Counted from the first letter of the stretch, positions 31,081 through 49,308 are shown. The stretch is 64,000 nucleotides of DNA from Paracoccaceae bacterium (GCA_965219635.1 OZ244783.1:2521983-2585982), one strand, 5' to 3'. Program-made: numbers and translations. Notes: generated by a model not told the origin, from the sequence alone.

Positions 31081-31815
31081 TCAGCGCTCCACTGAGGAGA
31101 GATCAGGCGCCTGCGCAGCAAATGCGAAATCGCAAGCGGAAAGAAACGACTGCTTGCGTCGCTGACGAACTGATGCAGCTTCTTCGTCAACTCCCCACTT
31201 CCCGGCTTGCCAGTCTTCGTCAATCATCGAGTGGTTCCAACCTGTTTGCGGCGCAATCCGGCCGTGCAGGACAGCCAATCCGAGGAGAATGGACCCCGTA
31301 AGGCCCACCATTTCCGAGAGTCCGGCCAGGATGAAGCGATCCTGACGCTCAATCTCGGCCTCCAGCAATCCGCAGACCTCAGCCTCCTGGCCAAGCGGCA
31401 TGACACCGGTGCCGACCTTCAACCGGGCTCCGAACCTGCTGGCCGCCCATTCGATCACCGGATCCCAAGCGTTGCTCTGCCGGACAACCAGGCCTGCTGG
31501 TTCCGTTGCCCGGAAACACAACAGGTCGCTAGAGGCGTAGTTCGAGATTGCGGTGACGACTTCATGCCGCGCCGGTCCGATCCTGTCCAGCGCCGTATTG
31601 GCAAGCAGAGTATAGGGCATTGCGGCGGGATTGACCTCGTCCTCAAGCAGTGCCCATTCTCCTGAGACAATTTCAGCCAGCTGGCGGCACGGGAACAACA
31701 GTTGATTTCCTGCTGGTGTCCGCGCCGGCTGTTCATCCAGCATCACAGCGTATCCGTCTGCTGTTGCGGCAACATCCGCCCGCGACCAGTGGCGCACTTT
31801 TCGCCATTCGCTCAT
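31081..31815 (-). CDS. ATP12-family F1-ATPase assembly chaperone
   Basis: 244 aa. The layout ...DGYAVMLDEQPARTPAGNQLLFPCRQLAEIVSGEW...MPYTLLANTALD matches alphaproteobacterial ATP12 proteins. Confidence 0.75.
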   Translation of the reverse strand: MSEWRKVRHWSRADVAATADGYAVMLDEQPARTPAGNQLLFPCRQLAEIVSGEWALLEDEVNPAAMPYTLLANTALDRIGPARHEVVTAISNYASSDLLCFRATEPAGLVVRQSNAWDPVIEWAASRFGARLKVGTGVMPLGQEAEVCGLLEAEIERQDRFILAGLSEMVGLTGSILLGLAVLHGRIAPQTGWNHSMIDEDWQAGKWGVDEEAASVRQRRKQSFLSACDFAFAAQAPDLSSVER

Positions 31816-32843
31816 GCAAATTCCTCAAACAGATCGGAAGGCGCAAGGGCTTCAGGTCTCCAGCCAAGCAGGCGGAAGGCATCCGCCATGTGCGGCGGCG
31901 GCGGTGCCGCAATTTCGAGCCTTTTGCCCGTGAAGGGATGCTCCATGCATATGGCCCGCGCATGCAAATGCAGCCTGTTCTGAAACAACCCGCTGCGCTT
32001 GGCTGCGGTGTTGCTGCCGTATTTCCGATCGCCGACAATCGGAGTTCCGAGTTCGGCCATATGGATGCGTAGCTGGTGGGAACGGCCCGTTACCGGGTTG
32101 AGAGCAACCAGCGCAAACTGGTTGCCCACGCGATCAACAACCGTGAATCTGGTCAGCGCTGGATGGTTCCTGACCTGCTTTCCTGCCGATGCGTCCTGCC
32201 GCCGTTCCATCTCCGAACGAATGTCGCCGCTGTCTTCTGCCGGTGCCCCGCAAACAACCGCCCAGTAGAGCTTGTGCACGCGGCGTAGCCGAAACAACTC
32301 CGCAAGGGCAGCTGATGCCCTTCTGGTCCGTGCCATGACCAGCACGCCTGAGGTATCCTTGTCGAGGCGATGAACCAGCCTGAGGGTCTCCTCCTCGCCG
32401 AGGCCCAGTTCAGGCGCCATGCGGTCGATATGCCGGTTCTGACCAGTGCCGCCCTGCACGGCCAGACCGGCCGGCTTGTCCACTGCAATCAGGAATTCGT
32501 CAGCAAAGAGTATCCTGCCTGACAGCGAGCCGGCTTTGCCACCGGCGTTCTGCCCGGAAACTGCGGCCTCACGCCTTCCCTCGTCGATTGCAGGAACTTC
32601 AATAGTCTGTCCTTCCCGCAGCCTAGTTGAGGGCTTTGTTTTACTGCCATCGACCCGGATGCGTCCTTTCCGGCACAACCCTTCTATCCGGGATTGGACA
32701 AGTCCCTTGAATCTTCGCCTCATCCAACGGTCCAGGCGCTGGTCGGCGTCCTCCCAACCTACGCTGAACTTCTGCGGGGCACTCAACTCAATACCTGCCT
32801 TGCCAGCATGATGCCGATTAACAGAGCCGCAATCGAAGCGCAT
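31812..32843 (-). CDS. RluA-family 23S rRNA pseudouridine synthase (RluC-like, with S4 domain)
   Basis: The 434-aa track ORF runs through crcB, so I trimmed it to ATG 32843. An alternative TTG at 32786 forms a TTGA overlap with the crcB stop. S4-like RLDRWMRRRFKGL...GRIRVDG and catalytic HRLDKDTSGVLVMAR. Confidence 0.85.
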   Translation of the reverse strand: MRFDCGSVNRHHAGKAGIELSAPQKFSVGWEDADQRLDRWMRRRFKGLVQSRIEGLCRKGRIRVDGSKTKPSTRLREGQTIEVPAIDEGRREAAVSGQNAGGKAGSLSGRILFADEFLIAVDKPAGLAVQGGTGQNRHIDRMAPELGLGEEETLRLVHRLDKDTSGVLVMARTRRASAALAELFRLRRVHKLYWAVVCGAPAEDSGDIRSEMERRQDASAGKQVRNHPALTRFTVVDRVGNQFALVALNPVTGRSHQLRIHMAELGTPIVGDRKYGSNTAAKRSGLFQNRLHLHARAICMEHPFTGKRLEIAAPPPPHMADAFRLLGWRPEALAPSDLFEEFA

Positions 32844-33166
32844 GCGCTGCCAGCCGCATAGAGTACTGCCGCGCCAGCCCGTCCGCTGTTCAACAATTGC
32901 CAGAAGTCCAGAGAAAACGCCGAGAAAGTGGTGTAGCCACCCAGAAATCCGGTGAGAACAAGCGGGCCGGCCCTCGAAAGCACTCCGCCGCTGCCTGCGA
33001 CCACAACAAAAAGCGCCCCCATCGCAAAGCATCCAACGACATTGACCATCAGTGTTCCATAGGGGAATCCGGCGCCAAGCAGCCGCGCTGTTCCGAGCAC
33101 GGTCAGATAACGGCATACAGCGCCCAGCGCACCGCCAGCGCCAATCTGGACAAGCAACCAGGTCAA
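32783..33166 (-). CDS. crcB: Fluoride channel CrcB/FluC
   Basis: The track ORF (to 33262) overlaps rarA. TTG 33166 gives about 127 aa starting (M)TWLLVQIGAGGALGAVCRY..., with FPYGTLMVNVVGCF and GFLGGYTTFSAF typical CrcB motifs. Confidence 0.85.
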   Translation of the reverse strand: MTWLLVQIGAGGALGAVCRYLTVLGTARLLGAGFPYGTLMVNVVGCFAMGALFVVVAGSGGVLSRAGPLVLTGFLGGYTTFSAFSLDFWQLLNSGRAGAAVLYAAGSACASIAALLIGIMLARQVLS

Positions 33167-33218
33167 GAGCCTTCGCCTTCCGGCAAAGATCCAGAATCCA
33201 TCGCTGCTGGCCGGCTCA

Positions 33219-34622
33219 TCAGCCTGACCCGCCGGTTCCGGCCCTGTGCCGCAGCTTGGCAAAATACTCCATCCGCTTTTTCATCTCGCGTTCGAAACCC
33301 CGCTCGACAGGCGAATAGAAGCTGCTGCGTTCCATTCCATCCGGAAAGTAGTTCTGTCCTGAAAAGGCATTGCGTTCGTCGTGATCATATTTGTAGCCAG
33401 CGGAGTAGCCAATGTCCTTCATCAGTCCAGTCGGCGAATTAAGAATGTGCTTGGGAGGGGGCTCCGAGCCGCTTCGGCGGGCGGATGAAGTTGCTTCCTT
33501 GTATGCGAGGTAGGCAGCGTTGGATTTGGGAGCCAGAGACAGGTAGATCGTTGCCTGAGCCAGCGCCAGTTCGCCCTCAGGGCTGCCAAGGCGCTCGTAG
33601 GCCTCCCAGGCGGCAAGGCAGACCTGCAAGGCATCCGGATCGGCCAGTCCGACATCCTCACTTGCCATCCGGGTCAGCCGCCGCGCCACAAATCTTGCAT
33701 CCTCCCCCGCATTGAGCATGCGGGCGAGCCAATAGAGCGACGCGTCGGGGTCGGAACCGCGCACCGACTTGTGAAGCGCCGAAATCAGGTTGTAGTGCCA
33801 GTCTCCGGACTTGTCATGGATGGCTGCGCGTTGCGATACCCGCCGCAGCAATGAACTGCTGTCCATCTGCTCACCGGCATCGACGGCGGCCAACTGCTCA
33901 ACCAGGTTCAGCAGCGCCCTGGCATCGCCATCAGCCAAGTCCAACAGCGTGTGGCGCGCCTCCGGGGTCAGCGGCAGAGTTGCGCCAAGGTGCGTCTCCG
34001 CCCGCGAGAGCAGTTGTCCAAGCGCCTCCCTGTCCAGCCGCTCAAGCACGAGAACCCGGGTTCTCGACATAAGCGCAGCATTCAGCTCAAAGGATGGGTT
34101 CTCCGTGGTGGCTCCGACAAGCACGATCGTGCCATCTTCGATATAGGGAAGAAATCCGTCCTGCTGAGCCTTGTTGAACCGGTGAATCTCGTCAACGAAG
34201 AGCACCGTGCCTCTGCCGTTCAGCCGCCGGTCCCGGGCAGCCGCGACTATTCGCCTGATTTCAGCGGTGTTCGAGTAGACGGCGCTGACCTGGACGAACT
34301 CATGACCGGTCTTCTGCGCAATCAGCCGGGCAATCGTAGTCTTGCCAACGCCTGGCGGCCCCCAGAGTATGGTCGAAGGCAACGGGCCGGCATCCAGTTC
34401 TGTGCCCAATGGGCCATCAGGTCCGAGAAGATGTCTCTGCCCCAGAACCTCGTTGAGGGAAGCAGGCCTCATCCTGTCGGCCAGCGGGCGCAGCGGCTGC
34501 GCCTCTGCTGCCTCACCAGGCAGCATACCTCGCCCTTCGTCAATCATGCCCTTACCAAGGTCCATGGGCCGGTCTGCCGGATCGCCGGCATTCTTGAGTG
34601 GCAGTGTTTCGGTGCCGCTCAT
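33219..34622 (-). CDS. rarA: Replication-associated recombination protein A (AAA+ ATPase)
   Basis: 467 aa. Walker A GPPGVGKTT, Walker B LFVDEIHRFNK, and the MgsA C-terminal domain (HYNLISALHKSVRGSDPDASLYW). Confidence 0.92.
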   Translation of the reverse strand: MSGTETLPLKNAGDPADRPMDLGKGMIDEGRGMLPGEAAEAQPLRPLADRMRPASLNEVLGQRHLLGPDGPLGTELDAGPLPSTILWGPPGVGKTTIARLIAQKTGHEFVQVSAVYSNTAEIRRIVAAARDRRLNGRGTVLFVDEIHRFNKAQQDGFLPYIEDGTIVLVGATTENPSFELNAALMSRTRVLVLERLDREALGQLLSRAETHLGATLPLTPEARHTLLDLADGDARALLNLVEQLAAVDAGEQMDSSSLLRRVSQRAAIHDKSGDWHYNLISALHKSVRGSDPDASLYWLARMLNAGEDARFVARRLTRMASEDVGLADPDALQVCLAAWEAYERLGSPEGELALAQATIYLSLAPKSNAAYLAYKEATSSARRSGSEPPPKHILNSPTGLMKDIGYSAGYKYDHDERNAFSGQNYFPDGMERSSFYSPVERGFEREMKKRMEYFAKLRHRAGTGGSG

Positions 34623-34674: not shown

Positions 34675-35103
34675 TCAGGCGTCGGCTTCGTCCTCCGGGG
34701 AAGCTTCAGCAGCAGCCTCCCTGTCGGCCAACCCTTTCGCATCAGGGTCGCGGTCAACCAATTCGATTAACGCCATTGGCGCCATGTCTCCATACCGGTT
34801 GCCTGCGCGGAGAATGCGCACATAACCTCCGTTGCGTTCGCTGTAGCGGGGACCCAGCACGCTGAACAGTTTGGCCAAGTGCTTGTTCTGTTTAAGCCGG
34901 GATGCAGCCTGGCGCCGGGCATGAAGGTCTCCGCGCTTTCCGAGCGTGATCAGTTTTTCGACAATCGGGCGCAGTTCCTTTGCCTTTGGCAGTGTCGTGC
35001 GGACCTGCTCATGCTCAATGAGTGACCCGGCCATGTTTGCGAACATCGCCTTCCTGTGCTCACTGGTTCTGTTCAAGCGGCGATAGCTTTTTCCGTGCCG
35101 CAT
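34675..35103 (-). CDS. rplQ: 50S ribosomal protein L17, extra copy (copy 1)
   Basis: 142 aa [33 protein letters not shown]... Five substitutions versus copy 2 over the first ~130 aa, plus a divergent acidic tail. Intact frame. Not preceded by an intact rpoA. Confidence 0.9.
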
Positions 35104-35189
35104 TTTCCTGTTCCCTCTTGGCAGTTCCCCAGCCGGGGCCGCAGATATTGAATGGACCTGTGCCTGTAGAATTGCCGGCGGGCCGAGTC

Positions 35190-35400
35190 AATGCGTGAAG
35201 GGCCACAGCGCCGCCAATGCCTTTGCGCTTCCTTGCCGGTTCCCCGGTATTCTACAGTTACCGGCACTGAATTCCCCCGGGTGGATGATCATTGCTGCCC
35301 TGGCATCGCGGAATTTGCTCTGCGGCTTTCTGCCAATGCTGGGCGTCCTGGTCGCTACCGGTCTGGATTGCCGGCGTGGCCGGGTTGCTGCTGGCCAGCC
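35190..35400 (-). pseudogene. Decayed remnant of the rpoA 3' end (alpha-CTD) plus the rpoA-rplQ spacer
   Basis: The translation ...RTPSIGRKPQSKFRDARAAMIIHPGE... aligns with RpoA ...[27 protein letters not shown]... The spacer upstream of rplQ copy 1 also resembles the true rpoA-rplQ spacer (shared ATTGCCGGC and TCCTGTT.(T/C)CCTCTT). No intact ORF with alpha-subunit properties. Confidence 0.5.
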
Positions 35401-35445
35401 TGCCAAAACATGATGCCTCCCCGTGTCTGGCTTGCTGATTGAAGC

Positions 35446-37035
35446 CTACAGAAGACGGACACCATCCCGCAGCCGGGAATAGGGAATCTCGCCGAGCTGG
35501 CACGGATTGTATCCGGGCGCCTTCACCGGGATGATCTCGGCAGCAAGCTCCTCGAAATCCGCCCTGAAATGAACTGTGCTTTTCACGACCAAGAGCGCCA
35601 TTTCCGCCGGTTCGATACCGAGATGGCTGAACAACGCCCGATCTAGACATTGAACCCTTTCCCCGGTGACAACGATCCGGACGTCGCACCGCGAACCGGC
35701 AAGACAGACTGCTGCAGTCGGACCCAGATTGGCATGCACGCCCCTCATCATCTCGCCACGCCAGGGGAAACGTCCGCCGCTGATCGAAGTGACAATGAAC
35801 CGGCCGTGAAAGGGCGGGTTTCTGGCGCCACCTGTCTTGCCGCCCAGCCGGGCCTCGAATTCCGCTCCCAAACCCGCCGCGTGCGCCAGCGCGACGAATT
35901 CGGGATCGCAAATGGCGGCCAAGGCGGCGTTTTGAACCCCGGCTGCAACCAGTCCAGACAGGATCCCCGTCGTGTCGGAACTGGCGCCGGCGCCCGAATT
36001 GTCCTGTACATCGGCAAGCACAACCGGACGGCCGGGCCGGCCAACCTTTACAGCCCTTGCGATCGCCTCGGATGGCGATGCCAGCGCCACCGGGAACCGT
36101 GCTTCAGCCTCAAGACACTGGCTTAGGAGAGCGTCAGCCGCCGCCTCGGCGGCCTCGCGTGAATTGTTGGTGGCAATGACCGCCGGTCCGCACATGGCAA
36201 TGTCTCCTGGAGGAAAGCCCATGGCGATTTCTGCATTGCCGTTGGCACAGGAGCCGCCTTCTGGAAGGCTCCCATAAAGCGTTTGGACCGGATCAGTCTT
36301 CGTATGCTGCGCTTGCAGTGGAATCATGAAGGGCAGTTTCCGGAATGCCGTATGCGGTTTGCAGCCGCTATCGATGATCTCCAGCAAGAGGCTGGCAGCT
36401 CGAGCCCCGGTTTCCGCCATGTCGAGATGCGGGTAGGTCCTGAAAATCGTTGCCGCGTTGGCTAGTTCCGCCATTTCCTGCGTGACATTGGCATGAAGAT
36501 CAAGGCTCATGGCGACCGGAACATCGGAGCCAATGAGATGCCTGATCCTGGCCAGGAGTTCGCCCTCGCCATCTTCATGGTCTTCAGTGATCATGGCTCC
36601 GTGAAGATCGAGATAAACCCCATCCAGAGGCGTTGCAGCTGCCAAACCGTCCAGGATCCTGCCTGAAATCGTCTCAAAAGCCTCTCTCTGCACAAGGTAT
36701 CCCGGTTCAGCGTTCGCCCAGAGTATGGGAACCACCTCCGCCCGGCCCTCGAGGTGGCCAATGCACCCGCCGATCGGGATGTTGACGTCCCGAAACGTCT
36801 CAACCAAATCCGCTGGCCCGGTCAGGCCCGGCCATCCGTCCATCCTGATGAAATCGGCAAGCGTCGTCGGAATGGGCGAGAAACTGTTGGTTTCATGCTG
36901 AAACCCTGCGATCGCAACTTTCGGCCTCGGCCGTCTTGCGAATAGGCCGCTTTCCGGCACGATGCGCGTCATTGATTTCCCTTCGCCTGTTCGGAGCATG
37001 GCTGCGGCGGATGCCAGCGTCAACCTTGCCAGCAA
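35446..37035 (-). CDS. M81-family metallopeptidase (MlrC / microcystinase-C-like)
   Basis: 529 aa; VAIAGFQHETNSFSP at the N-terminus is the DUF1485/MlrC signature. The start may be the internal ATG at 36972 (MTRIV...). Confidence 0.75.
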   Translation of the reverse strand: MLARLTLASAAAMLRTGEGKSMTRIVPESGLFARRPRPKVAIAGFQHETNSFSPIPTTLADFIRMDGWPGLTGPADLVETFRDVNIPIGGCIGHLEGRAEVVPILWANAEPGYLVQREAFETISGRILDGLAAATPLDGVYLDLHGAMITEDHEDGEGELLARIRHLIGSDVPVAMSLDLHANVTQEMAELANAATIFRTYPHLDMAETGARAASLLLEIIDSGCKPHTAFRKLPFMIPLQAQHTKTDPVQTLYGSLPEGGSCANGNAEIAMGFPPGDIAMCGPAVIATNNSREAAEAAADALLSQCLEAEARFPVALASPSEAIARAVKVGRPGRPVVLADVQDNSGAGASSDTTGILSGLVAAGVQNAALAAICDPEFVALAHAAGLGAEFEARLGGKTGGARNPPFHGRFIVTSISGGRFPWRGEMMRGVHANLGPTAAVCLAGSRCDVRIVVTGERVQCLDRALFSHLGIEPAEMALLVVKSTVHFRADFEELAAEIIPVKAPGYNPCQLGEIPYSRLRDGVRLL

Positions 37036-37158
37036 TTGTGGACGGCTTTACGCAACGGAATAGCACCACGGCAGGCTCACCCGGGCCCGGTAATGCCAAG
37101 GCTATAACATGTCGATGTCATTGTCCTCATCCGCGGTTCCCTTCGGAAGGGCACCGGA

Positions 37159-37914
37159 TCACTCAGGCTTGTGTCGCGGCATGAAGTCTTCGACCCCGAG
37201 GTAACTGCGCAGATCCGGAGACTCCGGACTGCCAAGGACGGCGCCGGTCCGCCCGAACGCCTGAATCTGGCCCTCGTGCATGAAGGCCGTGAATCCGGCG
37301 ATACGCTGCGCATCTGCCGGGTCATGGGTCACCATGATGACCGTCATTCCCGTATCTTCACTCAATCTGCAAACAAGATCCAGCATGGTCCGTCTCAGCG
37401 CAGGCCCCAGCCCTGCGAACGGTTCGTCAAGCACAAGGAGCGGCCTGCGCATGACCAGGGCGCGTGCAATTGCAACCCTCTGGCGTTCGCCGCCCGATAG
37501 GTCCCGCGGCAACCGATCCTGCAGGCCCGTAAGGCCGACACGATTGAGAGCATCATCAATATCGGCCCGTTGTTCGGCCGTCAGTTTCAGGCCCGGTTCA
37601 AGGCCAAGACCGACATTCATCGAAGCCGAGAGATGGGCAAACAGGTTGTGTTCCTGAAAGACGGTTGTGATTGGACGCCTCGCTGGCGGCAGTGCGGTGA
37701 TGTTGCGCCCGCCGACGAAGATCTCACCAGATTCAGGTTGCTCAAAGCCGCAAATGAGAGCCAGAAGTGTGCTCTTGCCGGCCCCGCTTGCCCCGAGGAT
37801 CGCTGTCACGACACCCGGCGGCGCCTCGAGACTGGCCTGGATGGAGAATCCGCCGATCCTGAACCGCAGGTCTCGAATTTCAAGTCCGGCGGCCAACGCG
37901 ACCAACTCCCTCAA
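37159..37914 (-). CDS. thiQ: Thiamine ABC transporter ATP-binding protein
   Basis: 251 aa. GASGAGKST, LSGGERQRVAIARA, LVLDEPF. The TTG start at 37914 overlaps the thiP end; later in-frame TTGs (37905, 37896) are possible. Confidence 0.8.
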   Translation of the reverse strand: MRELVALAAGLEIRDLRFRIGGFSIQASLEAPPGVVTAILGASGAGKSTLLALICGFEQPESGEIFVGGRNITALPPARRPITTVFQEHNLFAHLSASMNVGLGLEPGLKLTAEQRADIDDALNRVGLTGLQDRLPRDLSGGERQRVAIARALVMRRPLLVLDEPFAGLGPALRRTMLDLVCRLSEDTGMTVIMVTHDPADAQRIAGFTAFMHEGQIQAFGRTGAVLGSPESPDLRSYLGVEDFMPRHKPE

Positions 37915-39517
37915 TTAGCAGAAAGACCGCAAGGCAGGTTGCGGTCAGCAACAGGGCCAGGACAGCAGCTTCGTCCATTCGGTACGTCCCAAGTGAATTG
38001 AACAACAGTTTTGCCAGTGTGTCGGACTGGCCAGCGCCGAAAAGGACGATTGCTGTAAGGTCGCCAGTTGCAAGAGCTGCTGCAATTGCAGTGGCAGTCG
38101 TTGCCGGGCCCGCAAGCGCCGGCCATTCAACCAGAGCCACCCGCTTCCACCCCAAAACGCCAAGGCTGGCGCACAAGCGGTCATGATGCTCGGCATTCCT
38201 GCGGATGACCGGGCTCACAAACCGGATGACAAAGGGGATGGCAATCAATCCGTTCAGTACGATCGCCAGGGGGAGCGCCCAGTCGAATACAGCAACATGA
38301 GGAAACAGGAGGACAAAAAGTCCGGCTCCGAGCACAACCGGCGAGACAATCAGCGTCTGGCTGCCCAGGATTTCAATCCAGTTGCCCGCACCAGGCCGCC
38401 GCGCCCGAACAGCCAGATCCCTGGACGTTACTGACAACATGACTCCGAATACGAGGGCAATGAAGCCAGCGGATATTCCGATGGCCACACTGCGCGCTGC
38501 TGCAGCCCAGACTTCACCGCGAGCCAGGACTTCAGGAAAGGGTCCCGTGATGCCGGCCACGACGACTGCCGCCAACGGAGCTCCCACCCAGAAGATTCCC
38601 GCGCCCAGCCAGAAGACGTCGTTGAGGCGGCCCATGAAGGACAGCGTGTCAGGGCGGCTGATACGGCGCTCTTCAGTTGGAGCAGTGGGAGCAGAACCGG
38701 GCAGCATGTAAAACACCACGCCGATGACCAGACACGCCGCCACTTGCAGTCCGGCCAGTGCGACGGCGGTCGGGATATCAAAATCCAGCCGCAATGCCTG
38801 CCAGATCGCAACTTCCAGCGTGGTCGCCCTTGGGCCGCCCCCAAGCACCAGAACAATCGAAAAGCTGGAAAAACACAGCAGCAAGATGAGCAAGGCCAGA
38901 CCGGGAAGCGCAGATATGATCCGTGGAAGCTCAATCAGCCGGAAGATCTGCCAGGAAGACATTCCCAACTGACTTGCCAGCCTCCAGGATTCTCCCGGAA
39001 TAGACTCCCACACCGGTAGCAGCATTCTCACGCCCAACGGCAGATTGAAGAAGGTATGAGCAATCAGGATGCCGCTCAGACCGTATAGCGGAGCCAATCC
39101 GGGCAGCCCGGCGTTGAGCAGAGAACGGCTGATGATGCCGTTGTGGCCCCAGATCGCGACGATCCCGAAGACTGCAACAATCACCGGCAGCACAAGAGGC
39201 AATCCAAACAGCCGGATGATTATTGCCCGGCCCGGGAAACGGCGACGTCGCGCCAGCGCGCGGGTGATCGGCAAGGCAAACAGCAGCGACAGAACAGTCG
39301 AAAGGGTTGCCTGATAAGCTGTGAAACGCAGCACATGCCATGTGTAGCTGTCAAATGAAGCGGCTGCATCGGGCGGGCTGGCGCCTGCCAGAAGCGCCAC
39401 CATGGCGGTGATGGCCAGTCCGGGCGATGCGATCAGTGCGATGGCGCCCGGCCAGAGCGCCAGCCGCTGGCCAACGATCATCGGGCGCCGACGGCCTCCA
39501 ACCACTCCCTGATCCAC
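37880..39517 (-). CDS. thiP: Thiamine/thiamine-pyrophosphate ABC transporter permease (duplicated 6+6 TM)
   Basis: 545 aa, internally duplicated permease typical of ThiP. Sits between thiB and thiQ. Confidence 0.8.
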   Translation of the reverse strand: MDQGVVGGRRRPMIVGQRLALWPGAIALIASPGLAITAMVALLAGASPPDAAASFDSYTWHVLRFTAYQATLSTVLSLLFALPITRALARRRRFPGRAIIIRLFGLPLVLPVIVAVFGIVAIWGHNGIISRSLLNAGLPGLAPLYGLSGILIAHTFFNLPLGVRMLLPVWESIPGESWRLASQLGMSSWQIFRLIELPRIISALPGLALLILLLCFSSFSIVLVLGGGPRATTLEVAIWQALRLDFDIPTAVALAGLQVAACLVIGVVFYMLPGSAPTAPTEERRISRPDTLSFMGRLNDVFWLGAGIFWVGAPLAAVVVAGITGPFPEVLARGEVWAAAARSVAIGISAGFIALVFGVMLSVTSRDLAVRARRPGAGNWIEILGSQTLIVSPVVLGAGLFVLLFPHVAVFDWALPLAIVLNGLIAIPFVIRFVSPVIRRNAEHHDRLCASLGVLGWKRVALVEWPALAGPATTATAIAAALATGDLTAIVLFGAGQSDTLAKLLFNSLGTYRMDEAAVLALLLTATCLAVFLLIEGVGRVGRRT

Positions 39518-40473
39518 GCCTTGCGGTTGGCTGCAACTTCCTCCGGCGGCAGCAACAGCGTCACATCGGGCTTCGGTAGGTCGCGAAACACCTCTGGCAG
39601 TTCGCTTCCGATGTCTCTCGCAGGATACATCCAGTTCGTGGCCGGAATGACCTCAGCGAACTCGCGGGACGCAACGAATGACAGGAATTCCCGGGCAAGT
39701 TCCGGCTGGTCAGTCGATGCCGCAACGGCCGCAACCTCCACTTGCATATAGTGGCCTTCAGGGAACATCGCCGCCTTGTATCTGGGCTCATTCTCGGCCA
39801 GCAGGTGATACGCTGGCGATGTGGTATAGCTCAGGACCATGGGAGCTTCGCCGGCCGTGAACAATCCGTAGGCTTCGCTCCATCCCTTCGTGACAGTCAG
39901 CAGGCGAGCCGAGAGGTCGCTCCAGGCGCTCGCTGCCTGGTCTCCATAGACCGCCTTGATCCACAAAAGCAGTCCAAGACCCGGAGTGCTGGTTCTCGGA
40001 TCCTGGATGATCAGATCCTTGCCGCTGGCGCCAGACAAGAGTTCGGAAAGGGAAGAAGGCGGTTCTTGCAGTACAGCGCTATCGTAGATGATGGCGAAGT
40101 ATCCATAATCGAACGGAACAAAAACGGGATCATCCCACGCCAGAGGCAGGTCGAACGCAAGGCTGCCGAGTTCGTGTTCGACAACAACACCGGCATCGAC
40201 GGCTTCGGCCATCAGGTTGGTATCGAGACCAAGTACGACATCCGCCCGCCCTGACGCGCCTTCAAGGCGCAGAGCCGTCAGCAGGGTGGCAGCGTCGCCT
40301 TCCGCCACCCACCTGATTGTACATCCGCACTCGCCTTCAAATCGTTTCTTAACTTCGGGACCAGGTCCCCAGTCACTCACAAAGGAGTCATAAGTGTAGA
40401 CGGTCAACTCTTCCGCAAACACGGACGGCGCGGCAATTGAGAATGCAAAGCAGGCAAGGATGGCAGGTTTCAC
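39478..40473 (-). CDS. thiB: Thiamine ABC transporter substrate-binding protein
   Basis: The track ORF starts at TTG 40539, directly abutting the riboswitch. GTG 40473 is preceded by AAGGAGG with 6-nt spacing and gives VKPAILACFAFSIAAPSVFAEELTVYTYDSFVSDWGPGP, a signal peptide plus ThiB motif. Confidence 0.85.
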   Translation of the reverse strand: MKPAILACFAFSIAAPSVFAEELTVYTYDSFVSDWGPGPEVKKRFEGECGCTIRWVAEGDAATLLTALRLEGASGRADVVLGLDTNLMAEAVDAGVVVEHELGSLAFDLPLAWDDPVFVPFDYGYFAIIYDSAVLQEPPSSLSELLSGASGKDLIIQDPRTSTPGLGLLLWIKAVYGDQAASAWSDLSARLLTVTKGWSEAYGLFTAGEAPMVLSYTTSPAYHLLAENEPRYKAAMFPEGHYMQVEVAAVAASTDQPELAREFLSFVASREFAEVIPATNWMYPARDIGSELPEVFRDLPKPDVTLLLPPEEVAANRKAWIREWLEAVGAR

Positions 40474-40475
40474 GA

Positions 40476-40640
40476 ATTCCCTCCTTTTGAGGCGAGGGAA
40501 TCGGAATGGCAATCGGTGTAATGCAGTCCATCTTCTCAATCCCTACGCCGGCATGATCCGGATCAGGTTCAACGGGTCAACGCATTCTGCGCTTCTCAGT
40601 TTCGAAAGAAACTCCCCGTGAGCATTGGCAGGGAGAGTAG
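40476..40640 (-). promoter_or_regulatory. TPP (THI-box) riboswitch with SD-sequestering helix
   Basis: The minus strand reads ...CACGGGGAG...CTGAGAAGCGCAGAATGCGTTGACCCGTTGAACCTGATCCGGATCATGCCGGCGTAGGGA, matching the conserved CUGAGA and ACCUGAUCCGGnUnAUGCCGGCGnAGGGA cores. Downstream, ATTCCCTC (40494-40501) can pair with GAGGGAAT (40476-40483), which covers the thiB Shine-Dalgarno. Confidence 0.85.
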
Positions 40641-40875
40641 TGTGTGTTCAGCCCGATGGCAAGAGTGGCGATCGCCATCGCCAGGCTGGCGTGGTTCGGC
40701 GGGTGCAGGAGACAGCGCATTCGCCGGGATTGGAGGCGGAACAAATTGCCTCCATGTGATCATGCGGTCTATTGCCGGATCAATGCTTGCTTAAAAAGAC
40801 CATGCTGCGGCTTGCCTGCAAACAGGGCATCGCCAGGTGCTTCCCGGTCTGCCCTGCTTCAGCAATCGGCAAATT

Positions 40876-41304
40876 CTATTCCTCGGCTTCGTCCCCAACG
40901 GCCTCGGTAGCAGCGGCTTCCCTGTCGGCGAGCCCCTTGGCATCCGGGTCGCGATCAACCAGTTCGATGATCGCCATTGGCGCCATGTCGCCATACCGGT
41001 TGCCTGCTCGGAGAATGCGCACATAGCCACCGTTGCGATCACTGTATCGGGGCCCCAACACACTGAACAGCTTGGCCAGATGCTTGTTCTGCTTGAGCCT
41101 CGACGCAGCCTGGCGCCTGGCATGCAGGTCTCCGCGCTTACCAAGCGTGATCAGCTTTTCGACGACCGGGCGGAGTTCCTTCGCCTTTGGCAGGGTCGTG
41201 CGGACCTGTTCATGTTCAATGAGCGATCCGGCCATGTTTGCAAACATCGCCTTCCGGTGCTCACTCGTCCTGTTCAAACGGCGATAACCATTTCCGTGCC
41301 GCAT
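40876..41304 (-). CDS. rplQ: 50S ribosomal protein L17, canonical copy (copy 2, downstream of rpoA)
   Basis: 142 aa [33 protein letters not shown]... Sits 93 nt downstream of rpoA, as in the standard alpha operon. Confidence 0.93.
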
Positions 41305-41397
41305 CGTCCTGTTATCCTCTTTCAGATCCCGGGTTGGGGCGGAACAAGGCGGAATAGCCCATGCCGGCAGGATTGCCGGCAGCGCCAGGCCGGCCCG

Positions 41398-42414
41398 TCA
41401 AAAGTCGCCTTCATGCTTCTTGGCCAGTTCCTCGATATTCTCCGGCGGCCAACCCTTCGTTTCCATGCCGAGATGGAGTTGCATGCTCGCCAGAACTTCC
41501 TTGATTTCGTTCAGTGACTTTCGGCCGAAGTTCGGGGTCCGGAGCATTTCCGGCTCGGACTTCTGCACGAGGTCGCCAATATAGACGATATTGTCGTTCT
41601 TGAGGCAATTCGCCGAACGGACCGAGAGCTCGAGTTCATCGACCTTCTTGAGGAACTTGGGATTGAATTCGAACTCTTCCTCTTCCTCAGTCACCTCGAC
41701 CACCGGCGGTTCGCGGAAGTTGACGAAGGTCTGCAACTGATCCTGAATGATCCTGGCTGCCAGGGCCACTGCGTCCTCGGGCGTTATCGACCCGTCGGTA
41801 TCGACCTTGATCGTGAGCTTGTCATAATCGAGGCTCTGCCCTTCCCTCGTCGGTTGGACATCGTATGACACCCGGCGTATCGGCGAATAGATGGCATCAA
41901 TTGGAATATAGCCGATAGCGGACTCATCCGGCTGGTTGCGCTCCGCCGAGACATAACCCTTGCCCGTATTGACGTTCATCTCCATGCGCAGCGATGCGCC
42001 ATCGTCCAGATGACAGATCACGTGACGCTTGTTCAGAATCTCGATGCCCGCGGGCGCGGTAATGTCGCCTGCAACAACAGCCCCGGCCTTGCTGGCCTTC
42101 AGCGTCAGCCGGCGCGGGCCCTCGATCTCCATGCGCAGAAAGACGTCCTTGAGGTTCAACACGATGTCGGTGACGTCTTCGCGGACGCCAGGAATTGAGG
42201 AAAACTCGTGCAGAACGCCATCGATCTGCACACTCGTAATTGCTGCACCCTGCAGTGACGACATCAGCACTCGCCGCAAGGCGTTGCCCAGTGTCAGGCC
42301 GAAACCTCTTTCGAGCGGCTCAACGACAATGGTCGCTTGCCGAAGCCGGTTGCTGCCAGGTACGACATCGTACTTCCTGGGTTTGATAAGCGCGTTCCAG
42401 TTTTGGTGGATCAT
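41398..42414 (-). CDS. rpoA: DNA-directed RNA polymerase subunit alpha
   Basis: The track ORF starts at 42429. I prefer ATG 42414 ([14 protein letters not shown]...), the usual alphaproteobacterial N-terminus, with GGAG upstream. About 338 aa including the alpha-CTD. Confidence 0.93.
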
Positions 42415-42507
42415 CAGGTCAATCTCCATTCCTGCTCCCGGCCGGATCCACGGCCGGGAACTGCCCGAGAAAAAAGCTGAATTGCCGGAGTCCGGCGGGT
42501 TCGACAG

Positions 42508-42897
42508 TCAGACCCGGCGCCGCTTCGGCGGCCGGCATCCGTTGTGAGCGATGGGTGTCACATCCCGAATTGCTGTTATTGTGAAGCCAGCGGCGGCAAG
42601 AGCCCTGAGAGCGCTTTCCCTGCCGGAACCAGGCCCCTGGACCTGAACCTCCAGTGTCCTCACCCCGTGCTCCATCGCCTTTCTGGCAGCGTCCTCGGCC
42701 GCAAGCTGGGCGGCATAGGGCGTCGATTTGCGCGATCCCTTGAACCCCATTGTTCCTGCCGACGACCAGGCAATTGCATTGCCCTGCACATCGGAGATCA
42801 GGATCTTCGTGTTGTTGAACGAGGAACTGACGTGAGCAACCCCCGTAGCAATGTTCTTGCGCTCCCTTCTGCGAACGCGCGACCTGTCAACTGCCAA
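42508..42897 (-). CDS. rpsK: 30S ribosomal protein S11
   Basis: The track ORF (171 aa) runs through the rpsM end. TTG 42897 gives 129 aa: (M)[35 protein letters not shown]... Confidence 0.9.
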
Positions 42898-42908: not shown

Positions 42909-43277
42909 CTACTTCTTCTTGCCGGCAATCGGCTTCGCTGGCCCCTTCCGGGTCCTCCCATTGGTATGGGTCCGTTGTCCCCTTGTCGGCAGACCGCGCC
43001 GATGCCGCAATCCCCTGTAGCAACCGAGGTCCATCATGCGCTTGATGTTCATCTGAACCTCCCGCCGCAAATCTCCCTCAACCACAAAGTTCCGGTCCAC
43101 ATGTTCGCGGAGGCTAACCACCTCCATGTCGTTGAGTTCGTTCACACGACGGGACTGGTCAATTCCGACCGCGTCACAAATCTGTTTTGCCGATGTGGAG
43201 CCGATTCCGTGAATGCTGGTCAACGCAATCGGAACCCGCTTCCGGGTCGGTATGTTCACGCCTGCAATCCGCGCCAA
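42909..43277 (-). CDS. rpsM: 30S ribosomal protein S13
   Basis: 122 aa [26 protein letters not shown]... Confidence 0.93.
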
Positions 43278-43641
43278 CTTTCCTTCCTTTCAATATGTTC
43301 GTTCCGCAAACACCACTCGGCGCCCTCCGGACTTGCCGTCAGGCGCAATGTGCCCGCTTGGGCGGGTTTCTTCTCAAGAACAGGTGACTGCGGAATCGAA
43401 ATTGATGCATCCGATGACTGGGACGCGTTCACATAGTGATTCATTGGCGGGCGGTCAACACCTGGCAGCGGCAAGTCCGCATTTTTCTGGCGACAATCTT
43501 GAGTTGCCGCAGGAATGCCCCGGCCTCTACGCCCGCTACTGCTTGTGGCGCAACAGCAATTCGCCGCGGTTGAGCCCAGAGGATGGCCCGACCGCAGGCC
43601 CTATTGTGGCATGACGCGCGCTCGTGCAGGCTACCCGAAGG

Positions 43642-44448
43642 TTACAGGCAAAGCGAAAGCCAGCCATCGTCTGAAACTTCCATGCTGATCGGATCCGAAA
43701 TCGCGCCGACAAAACTCCCGTCGGGCTCATCATGCAGGAAGCCCAGCACTACAGGCCGTCCCGACAAGAAGACCACCCGGCAGGCATAGAGTTCGGTCTC
43801 GCTCGCGCTCGTCAGGAAGGGACCGGGCGCCAGTTGCCAGGGACCATCGAAGCTGTCGGCAACGAGATAGTGCGTGCCGCGAACGGCAGGGTGGCCGAAA
43901 CCCTCCCGCATTGACTTGGACCAGTGTTCAGGCCCTACACAGAACAGGCAATACCAGCGCCTGCCAATCCTGAAGATCTGCGGAACCTCCAGTTGGCCAA
44001 ACCCGCCCGAGAAAAGCGGATCAATGGATGTCCACTCGTTCAGGTCTCCCGAAACCGCCAACCCGATTGCGCCTGCATCGTTGGGCTCATCGGCACCCGC
44101 CATTCTTGCAGTGTAGGCCATCAACCAGCCAGTGCCGCAAGGGTGAGGCATGACCCACGGATCCCTGAGCGCCCGATCATGCCAGAAGCCTGGCCGGTAT
44201 TCCTCGTAACGCTCCGTGTCGAGGTCAAGCGCCAGGCCGCTTCCAACCCGCTGCCAGTTGTAAAGATCGGTGCCGATGGCGTGGCCGATCCTTTGCTTGA
44301 GCCCCTGTTCCGAGCGTTGCGTACCCGTGTAGAAATAGTGCCAGTCCCCGTTTGGCCCCTTGAGAACCGATCCCGTCCATGTCGTGTAATCATCCCATGC
44401 CGGGGCGGCCGCCGGGACAAAGCAGGTGCCGTGATAGGTCCAGTTCAC
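43642..44448 (-). CDS. GH32/GH68-clan (five-bladed propeller) beta-fructosidase-like protein; 5' end unresolved, possibly a pseudogene
   Basis: RDP motif (ALRDPWV) and an acid/base-like LEVPQIF lie inside the 268-aa ORF. The same frame stays open upstream to a stop at 44686-44688 and there encodes the nucleophile-type motif EKWIWDFWLAQ. That extension contains no ATG, GTG or TTG (only CTG at 44634 and 44616, and ATT at 44607). Confidence 0.55.
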   Translation of the reverse strand: MNWTYHGTCFVPAAAPAWDDYTTWTGSVLKGPNGDWHYFYTGTQRSEQGLKQRIGHAIGTDLYNWQRVGSGLALDLDTERYEEYRPGFWHDRALRDPWVMPHPCGTGWLMAYTARMAGADEPNDAGAIGLAVSGDLNEWTSIDPLFSGGFGQLEVPQIFRIGRRWYCLFCVGPEHWSKSMREGFGHPAVRGTHYLVADSFDGPWQLAPGPFLTSASETELYACRVVFLSGRPVVLGFLHDEPDGSFVGAISDPISMEVSDDGWLSLCL

Positions 44449-44630
44449 CAGGTCGAAGGATGAAGCATGCCCTTGCGTGACGTTGAAGTGCCTGAGTTCG
44501 GGCTCACCGAGCGACTTGTCCGCCTGAAGGAAATAGCAGTGCCAACGGGAGTCGTCTCCCTGGGCAAGCCAGAAGTCCCAAATCCACTTTTCGTCAAGAG
44601 CAAGAATGGCGGGCAGTCCGTCGTTGAATG

Positions 44631-45686
44631 TCAGGAAGCAGCAAGGCGCGGGCGGCTGAACGGGGAGGAGTCCCGCCGGACGATGTCACCGCAAATCTTC
44701 CGGACGGAGTGCGGGTAATGACCGGATTCCATGATCGCAAGCAGGCATTCCGCCACTGCGACGCCCATTTCGTAGTAGGGAAGGCTGATCGTGGAGAGCC
44801 GGGGAACAACCGATTCACAGATGGTAAGATCGTTGTCGAAGCCCCAGACCGCGATGTTTCGTCCCGCATTCAGGCCCTTCCGGGCCATAACAGGCAAGGC
44901 ACGCATGGCCATCAGATCGTTGCCAAAACAGATTGCTGTCGGTGGCCTTCCGCTCGAGGTGACCGCGTCGATTGCCTTTGGCAGCACATTGATCTCACGA
45001 ACGCCTTCCAGCTCCAACCCTTCTGCAAAATGGACGCACTCCCCGGAAAGGCCGGCTGCCCGGGCCTCGTCCAGGAATCCGCGATGACGCTGTTGTCCGG
45101 CTACCAGAGTCCGGGGCAACCCGATCATGGCAATCGATGAATGACCGTCTGCCAACATTTCGCGCACGACCAGGCGCTGCGCCGCCTCGTCGTCTGGAAC
45201 CACCGCAGGCGTGCCTGCGGCGTCGAAACAGTTCACAAGCACCAGCGGAAATGGAAGATTGAGATCAAGGGAAACTTCCTTGTGGTGATAGGTCGAATAG
45301 ACCAAGCCCTCCACGCGGTGCGCATGAAACGCCCTGACCAATTCAGCTATCTCATCGGGAGCCCCCTGCGCGTCAGCAAAGAGCAGCGTCTTGCCCGCAG
45401 TGCGGAAGGTCTTCTGGGCGCCATGCAGGATGGGGATCGATGTGAGACCAGTCCGGTACGGAATCCAGCCTTCGGCAAAAATGCCACTGGTGATCATGGC
45501 AACAAGCCCGCTGCGTTTCGACCGCATCGACCGCGCGCCGCCATGTGGCGTGTAATCCAGCACCTCCATGGCCTGCTCCACAGCCGCGCGCGTCTCCGGC
45601 CGCACCTGGCTCGATTTGTTAAGCACGCGCGAAACGGTCTTTATGGAAACTTCCGCCTGCCGGGCTACGTCGTGGATCGTTGCCAT
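44631..45686 (-). CDS. LacI-family transcriptional regulator
   Basis: Track ORF trimmed to ATG 45686: MATIHDVARQAEVSIKTVSRVLNKSSQVRPETR... is a typical HTH N-terminus. About 351 aa. Confidence 0.88.
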   Translation of the reverse strand: MATIHDVARQAEVSIKTVSRVLNKSSQVRPETRAAVEQAMEVLDYTPHGGARSMRSKRSGLVAMITSGIFAEGWIPYRTGLTSIPILHGAQKTFRTAGKTLLFADAQGAPDEIAELVRAFHAHRVEGLVYSTYHHKEVSLDLNLPFPLVLVNCFDAAGTPAVVPDDEAAQRLVVREMLADGHSSIAMIGLPRTLVAGQQRHRGFLDEARAAGLSGECVHFAEGLELEGVREINVLPKAIDAVTSSGRPPTAICFGNDLMAMRALPVMARKGLNAGRNIAVWGFDNDLTICESVVPRLSTISLPYYEMGVAVAECLLAIMESGHYPHSVRKICGDIVRRDSSPFSRPRLAAS

Positions 45687-45790
45687 TGTTTTTCCGCCTG
45701 CGAGCCGTGCAAGCCCATTCCCTTGCTGCATGCAGGAAATTGGCTGAGAGCGCACGACCCGAACTTGATTCTCCCGTGACTCATGATATT

Positions 45791-45804
45791 TGACAACATT
45801 GTCA
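45791..45804. promoter_or_regulatory. Inverted repeat TGACAAcaTTGTCA, candidate operator for the adjacent LacI regulator
   Basis: 6-bp perfect arms separated by 2 nt. Lies in the divergent lacI / SBP intergenic region, 36 nt upstream of the SBP start. Confidence 0.45.
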
Positions 45805-45839
45805 TCTTGCAACCAAAGGTAAAGGGAGAGGAACCCAAG

Positions 45840-47105
45840 ATGTTAATCAGCCATTTGAAACAAGTTCTGCTGGCGACCGGCGCGGCAACGCTGCTCGCTG
45901 CCGGCGCAGCGCAAGCGCAGACACAATTATCACTATGGTATCACGGTGCCGGCAACGAGGTCGAAAGAAGCCTGTTGCTGAACATCATCAACGATTTCAA
46001 TGCTTCACAGGGCGATTACGAGGTGGTTGTGGAGGAGTTTCCGCAGGAGTCCTACAATGACTCTGTGTCCGCTGCCGCCCTGGCAGGCAACTTGCCGGAC
46101 ATCATTGATGTGGACGGCCCAATCCTGCCGAACTGGGCCTGGGCAGGCTACATGCAACCGCTCGACATTGACCAGGCAGTGCTGGACCAGATGCTCCCGG
46201 GGGCGATCGGGGCCTGGAACGGCAATGTCTATGGTGTTGGTCTCTGGGATGCAGCCGTCGCGATCTATGCGCGCCGGAGCGTGCTTGAAGCCAATGGCGT
46301 CCGGATCCCGTCACTCTCTGATCCGTGGACACTGGCGGAATTCAACGACATCCTTGCGACGCTCCACGCAACCGGTGAATTCGAGTATGTGTTCGATGTA
46401 GGCATGGCCTGGACTGGCGAATGGTACCCCTATGCCTTCGGGCCGATGCTTCAATCGGCCGGAGGAGACCTCTTCAACACCGAAACAAACATGGCTGACG
46501 GAACACTTAATGGTGACGCCGGCCTAATGTTCGGCGAGTGGTGGCAGAGTCTCTTCACCAACGAATATGCGCCGGGAACCAGCCAGGACGGGGCCGACCG
46601 CGAAACCGGCTTCCTCGATGGCAGGTATGCCCTCCAACTGAACGGCAACTGGGCAGCGGTCACGGCTCTGGACTCGGTCGGAGACGACATGCTCTTCCTG
46701 CCTGCCGTCGACTTTGGAAACGGGCCGAAGATCGGCGCTGCCTCCTGGCAGTTCGGGGTATCGGCAACTTCCGAAAACAAGGAAGGCGCCAACGAGTTCA
46801 TCAGGTTCATGCTGCAGGACGAGTATTTTGCTGCATTCTCGGACGGTATCGGCCTGATCCCGCCCACAGTAGGATCCGCGGCGATGTCCGAAAAGTACCG
46901 TCCTGGCGGCCCGCTTGAAGTGTTCTTCGGACTTTCGGAAGCGCAGGCGACTCTGCGGGCGGTGACGCCGGGCTATGTCGTTGCATCGAAGGAATTCGAG
47001 AAGGCTATGGCCGATATCGCCAACGGCGCTGATGTGGCCGATGCGCTTGACGCAGCAGCCGACGCAATCGACGACGATGTTGAGAGGAACGGCGGGTACC
47101 AGTAG
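45840..47105 (+). CDS. Carbohydrate ABC transporter substrate-binding protein (CUT1, solute-binding family 1)
   Basis: Trimmed to ATG 45840, preceded by AAGGGAGAGG: MLISHLKQVLLATGAATLLAAGAAQAQ signal peptide; 421 aa. Confidence 0.85.
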   Translation: MLISHLKQVLLATGAATLLAAGAAQAQTQLSLWYHGAGNEVERSLLLNIINDFNASQGDYEVVVEEFPQESYNDSVSAAALAGNLPDIIDVDGPILPNWAWAGYMQPLDIDQAVLDQMLPGAIGAWNGNVYGVGLWDAAVAIYARRSVLEANGVRIPSLSDPWTLAEFNDILATLHATGEFEYVFDVGMAWTGEWYPYAFGPMLQSAGGDLFNTETNMADGTLNGDAGLMFGEWWQSLFTNEYAPGTSQDGADRETGFLDGRYALQLNGNWAAVTALDSVGDDMLFLPAVDFGNGPKIGAASWQFGVSATSENKEGANEFIRFMLQDEYFAAFSDGIGLIPPTVGSAAMSEKYRPGGPLEVFFGLSEAQATLRAVTPGYVVASKEFEKAMADIANGADVADALDAAADAIDDDVERNGGYQ

Positions 47106-47126
47106 CCCACCGGGCCCGATCAAAGC

Positions 47127-47155
47127 GCATGCCCGCCTGAACCGGGCGGGCATGC
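47127..47155 (+). other. GC-rich intra-operon hairpin (11-bp perfect stem, 7-nt loop) just after the SBP gene
   Basis: GCATGCCCGCC-tgaaccg-GGCGGGCATGC, 22 nt after the SBP stop, with no U-tract. Likely an mRNA-stabilising or attenuating structure that separates SBP expression from permease expression. Confidence 0.5.
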
Positions 47156-47341
47156 TGGAAGGGGGATGGCAGACCGGACAGCATAACCGGCCGGTTGCTG
47201 CTGCGAGACTGCCGGCTCGAGGACGGTAGCCACCGGCAACGGGATGGAACCAGGCCTCAGGCCGGGCCGACTGGACGGCACAGTGCCCTCTCGCAGATTC
47301 CCCCTCCAATGGCCGCATGATACACGCGGCGAGGGAGGCAA

Positions 47342-49302: not shown

Positions 49303-49308
49303 TCGAAG

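Follow-up and report, generated by a model that had tools for sequence, protein, structure and literature searches.

Ribosomal protein L17 (bL17) is encoded twice in a 64,000-nucleotide (nt) stretch of the genome of an uncultured, marine-type alphaproteobacterium, a Paracoccaceae bacterium (GCA_965219635.1 OZ244783.1:2521983-2585982; hereafter "the window," with positions counted from its first letter). One copy of the gene, rplQ copy 2 (c2), lies behind rpoA, and the other, rplQ copy 1 (c1), lies on the far side of a thiamine transporter and peptidase cassette. Sequence comparison indicates that c1 and c2 are true paralogues that arose by an old duplication and that both are under purifying selection. 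Our preferred explanation, to which we assign a probability of roughly 0.6, is that the pair was left behind by an old tandem segmental duplication with subsequent asymmetric loss (SNAP-type), with regulatory partition between the copies. The two open reading frames (ORFs) and the ribosomal and downstream genes next to them are as follows.

40876-41304, minus strand: rplQ copy 2 (c2), in the canonical slot after rpoA (ORF and family matches)
34675-35103, minus strand: rplQ copy 1 (c1), first gene of a rplQ-rarA-crcB-rluC-ATP12 array (ORF and family matches)
41398-42429, minus strand: rpoA, intact (ORF and Pfam families; 86 to 93% amino acid identity to relatives)
42508-42897, minus strand: rpsK, upstream of rpoA
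42909-43277, minus strand: rpsM, upstream of rpsK and rpoA
33219-34622, minus strand: rarA (synteny in 119 related loci; collinear with the related locus L088)
32783-33166, minus strand: crcB, part of the rarA-crcB-rluC-ATP12 array (31081-34622)
31812-32843, minus strand: rluC, part of the same array
31081-31815, minus strand: ATP12, last gene of the array

A preliminary description of this DNA had reported two rplQ ORFs of 142 codons each, and both are present at the positions it gave, but on the minus strand. Each encodes a full-length bL17: the L17 equivalog model TIGR00059 scores c1 at 146.6 bits and c2 at 148.6 bits (cutoff, 70.05), and Pfam PF01196 covers positions 1 to 97 of 97 in both. 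The gap from c2 to c1 is 5,772 nt. While c2 starts 93 nt past intact rpoA, c1 is preceded by a decayed rpoA end and a spacer. The genes differ at 66 of 429 nt (84.6% identity), with 13, 6, and 47 differences at the first, second, and third codon positions, which agrees with the earlier estimate of one base in six or seven and many third-position changes. The proteins differ at 12 residues (92% identical; 96% in the core), and the split between a conserved core and a differing acidic tail was also correctly described: five changes fall within residues 1 to 132 (K5N, S6G, I47V, E89D, and L112I) and seven within the 10 positions of the tail (residues 133 to 142). Public gene annotation shortens c1 to 123 amino acids by starting it at Met20 (as also in L081, 16259-16630). 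Codons 1 to 19 of c1 are conserved, with mostly synonymous changes, and a good ribosome-binding site (RBS) precedes the ATG at 35103. A look-up of the exact 142-amino-acid c1 sequence returned no match; because public calls begin at Met20, such look-ups fail, and the paralogue is easily overlooked.

The two-copy layout is not an assembly artifact. The window matches a 1.4-Mb long-read metagenome contig, and its layout recurs in contigs of ERZ26695579, ERZ25072670, and ERZ25072258 and in a Logan contig of ERR13605531. The whole interval is tiled by contigs of three independent runs, with both copies equally deep (~204 versus 169 in X1), and a 5,334-nt Logan contig found in three runs extends across rarA-c1-mlrC-thiQ-thiP. 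A second strain, at 98.6 to 98.8% identity, is represented by contigs L085, which has the two-copy layout of the window, and L087, which spans rpoA to mlrC with c2 intact. The view that this is not an assembly-type duplication, already taken in the preliminary description, is borne out by an identical layout in four assemblies, in three runs at equal depth, and in two strains. A chimeric join of two related genomes during assembly or binning might be suspected from the low coverage (7.8×) of the long-read metagenome contig that is the source and from the related Rhodobacterales that share the samples. However, the junctions are identical in four assemblies from different samples, the short contig bridges the c1 side in three runs, depth is equal over both copies, and no alternative joint occurs at homologous positions, so that we give this explanation practically no weight.

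Some contigs might at first sight suggest a different picture. Two of them carry frameshifts in c2, which are single-base indels in assemblies at 2× and 4.5× (one within a GGGGCCCC run); we rejected these as real, as L087, from the same sample, and contigs at 200× carry an intact c2. Joints such as 35052->41418, considered as a deletion form or third copy, are cross-mapped rpoA-rplQ contigs of co-occurring Rhodobacterales. The X1 and X2 samples also hold several other Rhodobacterales at comparable depth (33 to 331 in X1), as seen over positions 40700 to 41700.

The duplication extends beyond rplQ, into the following elements.

35219-35364, minus strand: decayed rpoA 3' fragment (last ~147 nt), putative end-point of the duplication (profile matches)
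35104-35218, minus strand: duplicated rpoA-rplQ spacer before c1, with promoter-like motif and RBS kept
41305-41397, minus strand: rpoA-rplQ spacer before c2, with the TTGAC..CTAnAG motif lost and a GC-rich hairpin (GCCGGCAatccTGCCGGC) at 41363-41380
35362-35445: stretch of 84 nt between the rpoA remnant and the peptidase gene mlrC

The preliminary description saw a duplication of rplQ only. That rplQ is duplicated stands, but the limit at the ORF does not, because homology continues upstream of c1 to about position 35364. A 342-nt region upstream of c1 aligns with the spacer and rpoA 3' end of c2 and of the related loci L088, L086, and L089 (nucleotide homology to L086 in the c1 spacer extends to 35192). 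In nhmmer searches, a profile of rpoA plus spacer matched at 35114 to 35361 (E = 5e-13), and a profile of rpoA coding sequence only, run against both strands of the whole window, found just rpoA itself and 35219 to 35364 (E = 0.0028). Judged from these alignments, the duplicated unit is at least the last ~147 nt of rpoA, the spacer, and rplQ, or ~0.68 kb. Small plus-strand ORFs in the c1 spacer were taken as spurious; they are without a family match and overlap the rpoA remnant. A search for a rarA remnant downstream of c2 found none.

The rpoA remnant serves as a record of the time since duplication. It matches the real rpoA end at 58.7% identity, interrupted by two indels (a deletion of 4 nt and an insertion of 14 nt, together 18 gap columns), and every reading frame contains stops. 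Its identity by codon position (62/46/68%) has no pattern, versus 98/98/69% in a functional orthologue control. The Jukes-Cantor (JC) distance of the remnant, ~0.60, is comparable to the synonymous divergence (dS) of rplQ, which indicates that the fragment has been noncoding through essentially the whole divergence of c1 and c2. Recent arrival of c1 from a diverged relative would predict a fragment with ~85% identity and with differences biased to third positions. The remnant decayed while the adjoining c1 ORF stayed intact, which argues that the duplication is old and took place in situ and that both copies are under selection.

Divergence between the copies gives the same impression. Over codons 1 to 132, dS is 0.72, nonsynonymous divergence (dN) is 0.023, and dN/dS is 0.03 (Nei-Gojobori); the tail is nearly unconstrained (proportion of nonsynonymous differences [pN], 0.45). 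Between the two strains, c1 has six synonymous changes and one conservative change (M24L), and c2 has four synonymous changes and one tail change, a synonymous bias that implies that selection is also recent. The earlier suggestions of an old rather than recent duplication and of purifying selection on both copies thus hold, the former by dS and the decay of the remnant and the latter by a dN/dS of 0.03 (not ~1) and by the synonymous-biased polymorphism. Relative to L088, L086, and L089, dS is saturated (1.2 to 3.9) and dN is 0.08 to 0.10; with a dS to L088 of 2.06, versus 1.17 for c2, c1 has the longer synonymous branch. Differences between c1 and c2 are even along the gene (14/19/16 by thirds), and the longest identical run is 18 nt. 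We found no mosaic (crossover) pattern along rplQ and, given the even differences and short identical runs, no sign of gene conversion between the copies.

Whether c1 is a paralogue or a xenologue had been posed as a check, and the answer is in two parts. In a nearest-neighbor bootstrap, c1 and c2 were mutual nearest neighbors in 987 of 1,000 resamples, and they have in common seven derived residues (V34, R35, N73, L76, S81, R99, and N102), which few or none of the 120 best database relatives carry. These results exclude a distant xenologue and favor a paralogue; transfer from a close relative would leave an equal structure.

Between the copies lies the following cassette.

40522-40628, minus strand: thiamine pyrophosphate (TPP) riboswitch, at the 5' edge of the cassette and directly upstream of thiB (Rfam RF00059, 80.5 bits; gathering threshold, 54.3)
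39478-40473, minus strand: thiB, of a thiamine ATP-binding cassette (ABC) importer spanning 37159-40473 (NCBIfam TIGR01276, 360 versus a cutoff of 317)
37880-39481, minus strand: thiP (best match ThiP, just below cutoff)
37159-37896, minus strand: thiQ (best match ThiQ, just below cutoff)
35446-36972, minus strand: M81/MlrC-like peptidase gene (mlrC), at the 3' edge of the cassette (Pfam DUF1485 and MlrC_C)

The riboswitch match and the matches to the ThiB, ThiP, ThiQ, and MlrC-type families agree with the thiBPQ operon with riboswitch and the M81 gene named in the preliminary description. These four genes are the ORFs between the copies, and all genes of the interval are co-oriented with rplQ. 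A microcystinase was ruled out as the M81 gene product (189 bits versus a cutoff of 999).

The cassette is not obviously foreign and appears to be a relocated native one. In GC content and in GC content at third codon positions (GC3), it matches the flanks. The closest homologues of its ThiB, at 79% and 77% identity, are encoded in a conserved oppABCDF-thiB-thiP-thiQ-mlrC-pepX(S15)...recR-ybaB-dnaX array, away from rplQ. Nucleotide homology to the loci L170 and L172, at 72 to 76% identity, starts at 40627/40622 and ends at 35468/35446, which is from the riboswitch to the mlrC stop. No integrase, transposase, insertion sequence (IS), or tRNA is present in the interval between the copies, which therefore lacks the integrase and att sites of a genomic island, and the sole repeats that flank the cargo are the 0.68-kb diverged segment. 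Searches with the 247-nt spacer after c2 (40629-40875) and with the 84-nt spacer at the mlrC side found no homologues. The preliminary description had offered two origins, an old duplication used as a landing site for the block and a second L17 acquired together with it. Both are less economical than one tandem segmental duplication, because the composition of the cargo is native and relatives keep the riboswitch-thiBPQ-mlrC unit in the opp...pepX array elsewhere.

Relatives indicate the state before duplication. The best L17 matches are from Paracoccaceae (Rhodobacterales), at 88% identity or less, and scans of GTDB representatives and JGI metagenomes returned no relative above 83% and no other two-copy case. 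L17 had been described as normally single-copy, and indeed a second rplQ within 10 kb occurs in 0 of 163 related loci. In 119 of these loci, rarA follows rplQ on the same strand, usually with crcB, rluC, and ATP12 behind it, and the rplQ-rarA gap ranges from 80 to 5,738 nt. Among the nearest relatives is L088, whose sequence downstream of rplQ is collinear with that of the window and in which 104 nt separate rplQ from rarA. Synteny of the rpoA-rplQ-rarA interval, proposed earlier as a check, is thus informative: rplQ-rarA is uninterrupted in L088, and the two-copy arrangement is absent from all 163 loci. A protein search of PLSDB for plasmid-borne L17 returned mostly mislabeled chromosomes and chromids.

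Rearrangement at this place is not confined to the window. In L086 (10603-20360; L17 identity of 88%), a pepX(S15)-amidohydrolase-mlrC-oppDFCBA block lies in convergent orientation directly after a single rplQ, which has no rarA within 10 kb. This indicates that rearrangements downstream of rplQ are recurrent and draw on the same set of genes. Upstream, at 43300 to 50300 of the window, rpsM-rpsK-rpoA-rplQ is detached from the spc operon (secY-adk); the neighbors on the rpsM side are a GH32-like gene and genes for a LacI-type regulator and a sugar ABC transporter. The spc detachment is also seen in L088; L089 keeps adk nearby.

The two copies differ in their upstream sequences. The c1 spacer contains TTGACT (35186-35191) and CTACAG (35164-35169), 16 nt apart. 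The pattern TTGAC[TA]-N16-[CT]TAnAG occurs in only 4 of 158 spacers (c1, L088, L086, and L089), at -82 to -88 from the ATG, and the hexamers are more conserved among these four than the sequence between them. The motif appears to resemble the alphaproteobacterial housekeeping promoter consensus. In the c2 spacer, both hexamers are lost and the GC-rich hairpin at 41363-41380 stands in their place. Downstream of c2 is one further element.

40818-40860, minus strand: terminator-like hairpin followed by UUUGC, 16 nt past the c2 stop and inside the 247-nt spacer (predicted fold)

As described earlier, rarA starts 52 nt after c1 without an obvious terminator; no terminator-like hairpin was found between c1 and rarA in the fold. 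Nor is a terminator evident between mlrC and c1. Codon usage of c2 (GC3, 0.699; codon adaptation index [CAI], 0.728) is like that of rpsM, rpsK, and rpoA, and that of c1 (GC3, 0.664; CAI, 0.663) is like that of ordinary genes. A generic scan for sigma-70 promoters and terminators was uninformative. At permissive thresholds (E ≤ 10), Rfam returned no leader or small RNA, and hence no L17 leader, upstream or downstream of either copy. A covarying CCCCAAGG hairpin motif, which 112 of 158 related spacers contain, is missing from c1, c2, L086, L088, and L089.

That motif deserves mention in its own right. It has the form CCCCAAGGAGAGC-hairpin-GGACAAAGCAAAAC and lies ~60 to 100 nt before the rplQ ATG in 112 of 158 Paracoccaceae spacers (L004, L006, L009, L013, and 108 others). 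The hairpin covaries, with GC/CG/AU/GU swaps at at least five pairs, and matches no Rfam family; possibly it corresponds to the L17 r-leader prediction of Eckert and Weinberg 2020 (PMC7247131). The clade of the window has the promoter-like motif in its place.

Taken together, these observations suggest a route from one rplQ to two. The ancestral order, as seen in L088, is rpoA, a spacer with the promoter-like motif, rplQ, and rarA-crcB-rluC-ATP12. The window has a direct, co-oriented repeat of the rpoA 3' fragment, spacer, and rplQ, with a join of mlrC to the rpoA fragment at ~35364-35445. A tandem duplication with end-points ~150 nt before the rpoA stop and just after mlrC of the opp-thiBPQ-mlrC-pepX array would create the join mlrC/'rpoA-spacer-rplQ-rarA, which is the one observed. 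An asymmetric deletion in the left copy would then have removed everything between rplQ and the TPP riboswitch, to give the net order rpoA-rplQ(c2)-[riboswitch-thiBPQ-mlrC]-'rpoA remnant-rplQ(c1)-rarA. Throughout their divergence, strong purifying selection has acted on both L17 genes, whereas the rpoA fragment that was duplicated with them has undergone neutral decay. At 85% identity and with no identical run above 18 nt, the copies should no longer recombine, which would stabilize the cassette between them. With its motif lost, rpoA in front, and a terminator-like hairpin behind, c2 is probably made by read-through of the rpsM-rpsK-rpoA transcript; c1 retains the ancestral motif and RBS at the head of the rarA operon, and its transcription probably starts at a predicted promoter of its own. 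Retention would then reflect regulatory partition of one dosage-sensitive gene, in which neither copy alone gives the ancestral L17 supply.

Several points weigh against this account. Neither the large-duplication intermediate nor the deletion junction behind c2 is visible, no trace of rarA was found past c2, and the 247-nt spacer at that junction has no detectable homologue; with K at ~0.6 to 0.7, remnants of deleted genes at this second junction would be undetectable. The candidate promoter is a conserved motif only, which the generic sigma-70 scan did not flag. The gap in CAI is small, and preferred codons are even among the codons that differ (20 versus 22). The pair is confined to one species-level lineage, for which reason its age rests on dS and a 121-nt alignment of the remnant. 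Finally, an old integration of DNA from a close relative would leave an equal structure. Such an event could have been a Campbell-type acquisition, in which a circular DNA of the same or a very close species, carrying the rpoA 3' end, spacer, and rplQ next to riboswitch-thiBPQ-mlrC, entered by a single homologous crossover in the rpoA-rplQ region and left exactly the homologous segment duplicated, once on each side of the cargo. Direct repeats around a cargo, one of them behind a truncated rpoA, are the product expected of a single crossover; L086, with its mlrC/opp/pepX block right after rplQ, illustrates that such neighborhoods exist in relatives; and horizontal gene transfer from close relatives has been named as an alternative (PMC8046335). 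However, differences between the copies are evenly spread and nonmosaic, the cargo has native composition, the seven joint derived residues require a donor within the same narrow lineage, the rpoA fragment has been noncoding for the whole divergence (and the event is thus not recent), and no plasmid, integrase, or IS traces were found. We consider an acquisition of this kind unlikely, and we favor tandem duplication with asymmetric loss.

The other alternatives concern why two copies persist. One copy could be a redundant relic without a role of its own, headed for loss and still intact since a damaged L17 is harmful or time has been short. The 96% identity of the cores, without a demonstrated functional difference, would fit this, as would the preference of gene callers for an internal start in c1 and the ordinary codon usage and longer synonymous branch of that copy. 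Over a dS of 0.72, however, a dispensable gene should have gained stops and indels, as the adjoining rpoA fragment did, whereas both ORFs are intact in two strains with synonymous-biased polymorphism, and the c2 frameshifts are restricted to the two low-depth assemblies and contradicted by deeper contigs; we regard a relic as improbable. Alternatively, c1 and c2, whose products are distinguished chiefly by the acidic tail and by residues 5 and 6, could encode specialized isoforms that build distinct ribosome subpopulations under different conditions. The divergent tails beside a near-invariant core and the different transcriptional contexts of the two genes are compatible with this idea. Against it, L17 tails vary freely among all relatives, so that tail divergence is the expected neutral pattern, and there is neither an excess of core substitutions nor, in the absence of cysteines, a switch of a zinc motif; specialized isoforms therefore seem very doubtful to us. 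A related reading, to which we give little credence, is that the pair might be under different expression programs and yield two ribosome populations that differ in a solvent-exposed acidic tail, with c2 expressed along with rpoA and ribosomal genes and c1 expressed with rarA and rluC under its own promoter and perhaps, in addition, through transcripts that continue from riboswitch-thiBPQ-mlrC. If true, ribosome composition would be tied to thiamine status or to demand for DNA repair and rRNA modification. Regulatory partition remains the reading we prefer.

The arrangement is an unusual instance of known rearrangement processes. Brandis 2021 proposed a duplication-then-asymmetric-loss (SNAP) route for insertions in ribosomal operon clusters, and Psychromonas ingrahamii has a second alpha operon, rpmJ2-rpsM2-rpsK2-rpsD2-rpoA2-rplQ2 (PMC8046335). 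As in P. ingrahamii, an extra rplQ would here owe its origin to segmental duplication or to DNA received from a very close relative, and the duplicates are mutually closest; as in the SNAP model, nonribosomal genes reach the alpha operon without a mobile element. Unlike in P. ingrahamii, only rplQ is in two copies, rpoA is reduced to a wreck of ~147 nt, and the copies are old (dS, 0.72). Instead of forming a whole-operon duplicate, they flank a relocated cassette, which looks like a late stage.

Duplicated translation genes are known from other settings. The two copies of tuf are kept near-identical by gene conversion. Like tufA and tufB, both rplQ copies belong to an essential, highly expressed translation gene under strong purifying selection; unlike them, they have 47 evenly spread third-position differences and identical runs of at most 18 nt, which argues against ongoing conversion. 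The pair is also reminiscent of duplication-degeneration-complementation, in that coding sequence is kept and upstream regulatory sequence has degenerated in one copy (the motif lost from c2), but the complementary loss in c1, that of read-through from rpoA, comes from the rearrangement itself. Few bacterial genes are duplicated as rarely as those for ribosomal proteins, and the well-studied paralogue pairs are zinc-related. In the bacterial census of ribosomal protein genes, which average ~1.02 copies per protein, L17 is not on the list of proteins that are never duplicated, and the supplementary table has 997 L17 mentions for 995 genomes, by which extra L17 copies are very rare (PMC3353972). 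The zinc-related C+/C- pairs, as that census cites them from Makarova et al. 2001, are L31, L33, L36, S14, and S18 (PMC3353972). The rplQ pair resembles these in that a single ribosomal protein has two genes in one genome, of which only one lies in the canonical operon context. It differs from them in that L17 has no zinc ribbon: neither copy contains a cysteine (0 in each), and thus neither has a CxxC motif, and Zur-type regulation is not evident. Identity between the L17 copies is also high (92%); in many C+/C- pairs it is less than 50%. Our literature search found no description of a diverged paralogue pair of L17 only.

Elsewhere in the window, a giant ORF at 50709-63986 (minus strand) encodes at least 4,425 amino acids within the window and 5,722 on the full contig, with fn3 and Big_12 matches and, at 52.5 to 62 kb, ~30 tandem units of 282/291 nt that are 60 to 95% identical. 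Its product is probably a giant surface adhesin. An inverted repeat (23063-23424 and 50962-51323) has 362-nt arms that are 71% complementary and 27.5 kb apart; the arms may be paralogous coding sequence.

In this lineage, then, a core large-subunit protein that is not among the zinc-related ones has been kept in two copies for a long time. The decayed rpoA fragment provides a built-in neutral control, which shows that the extra copy is preserved by selection and not by youth. Because the extra L17 is truncated to 123 amino acids in public calls, such paralogues are easily missed. The locus has the look of a late stage in the duplication-loss route that places foreign-looking cassettes beside conserved ribosomal operons. 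It is also a definite case in which regulatory partition of a dosage-sensitive gene can be tested.

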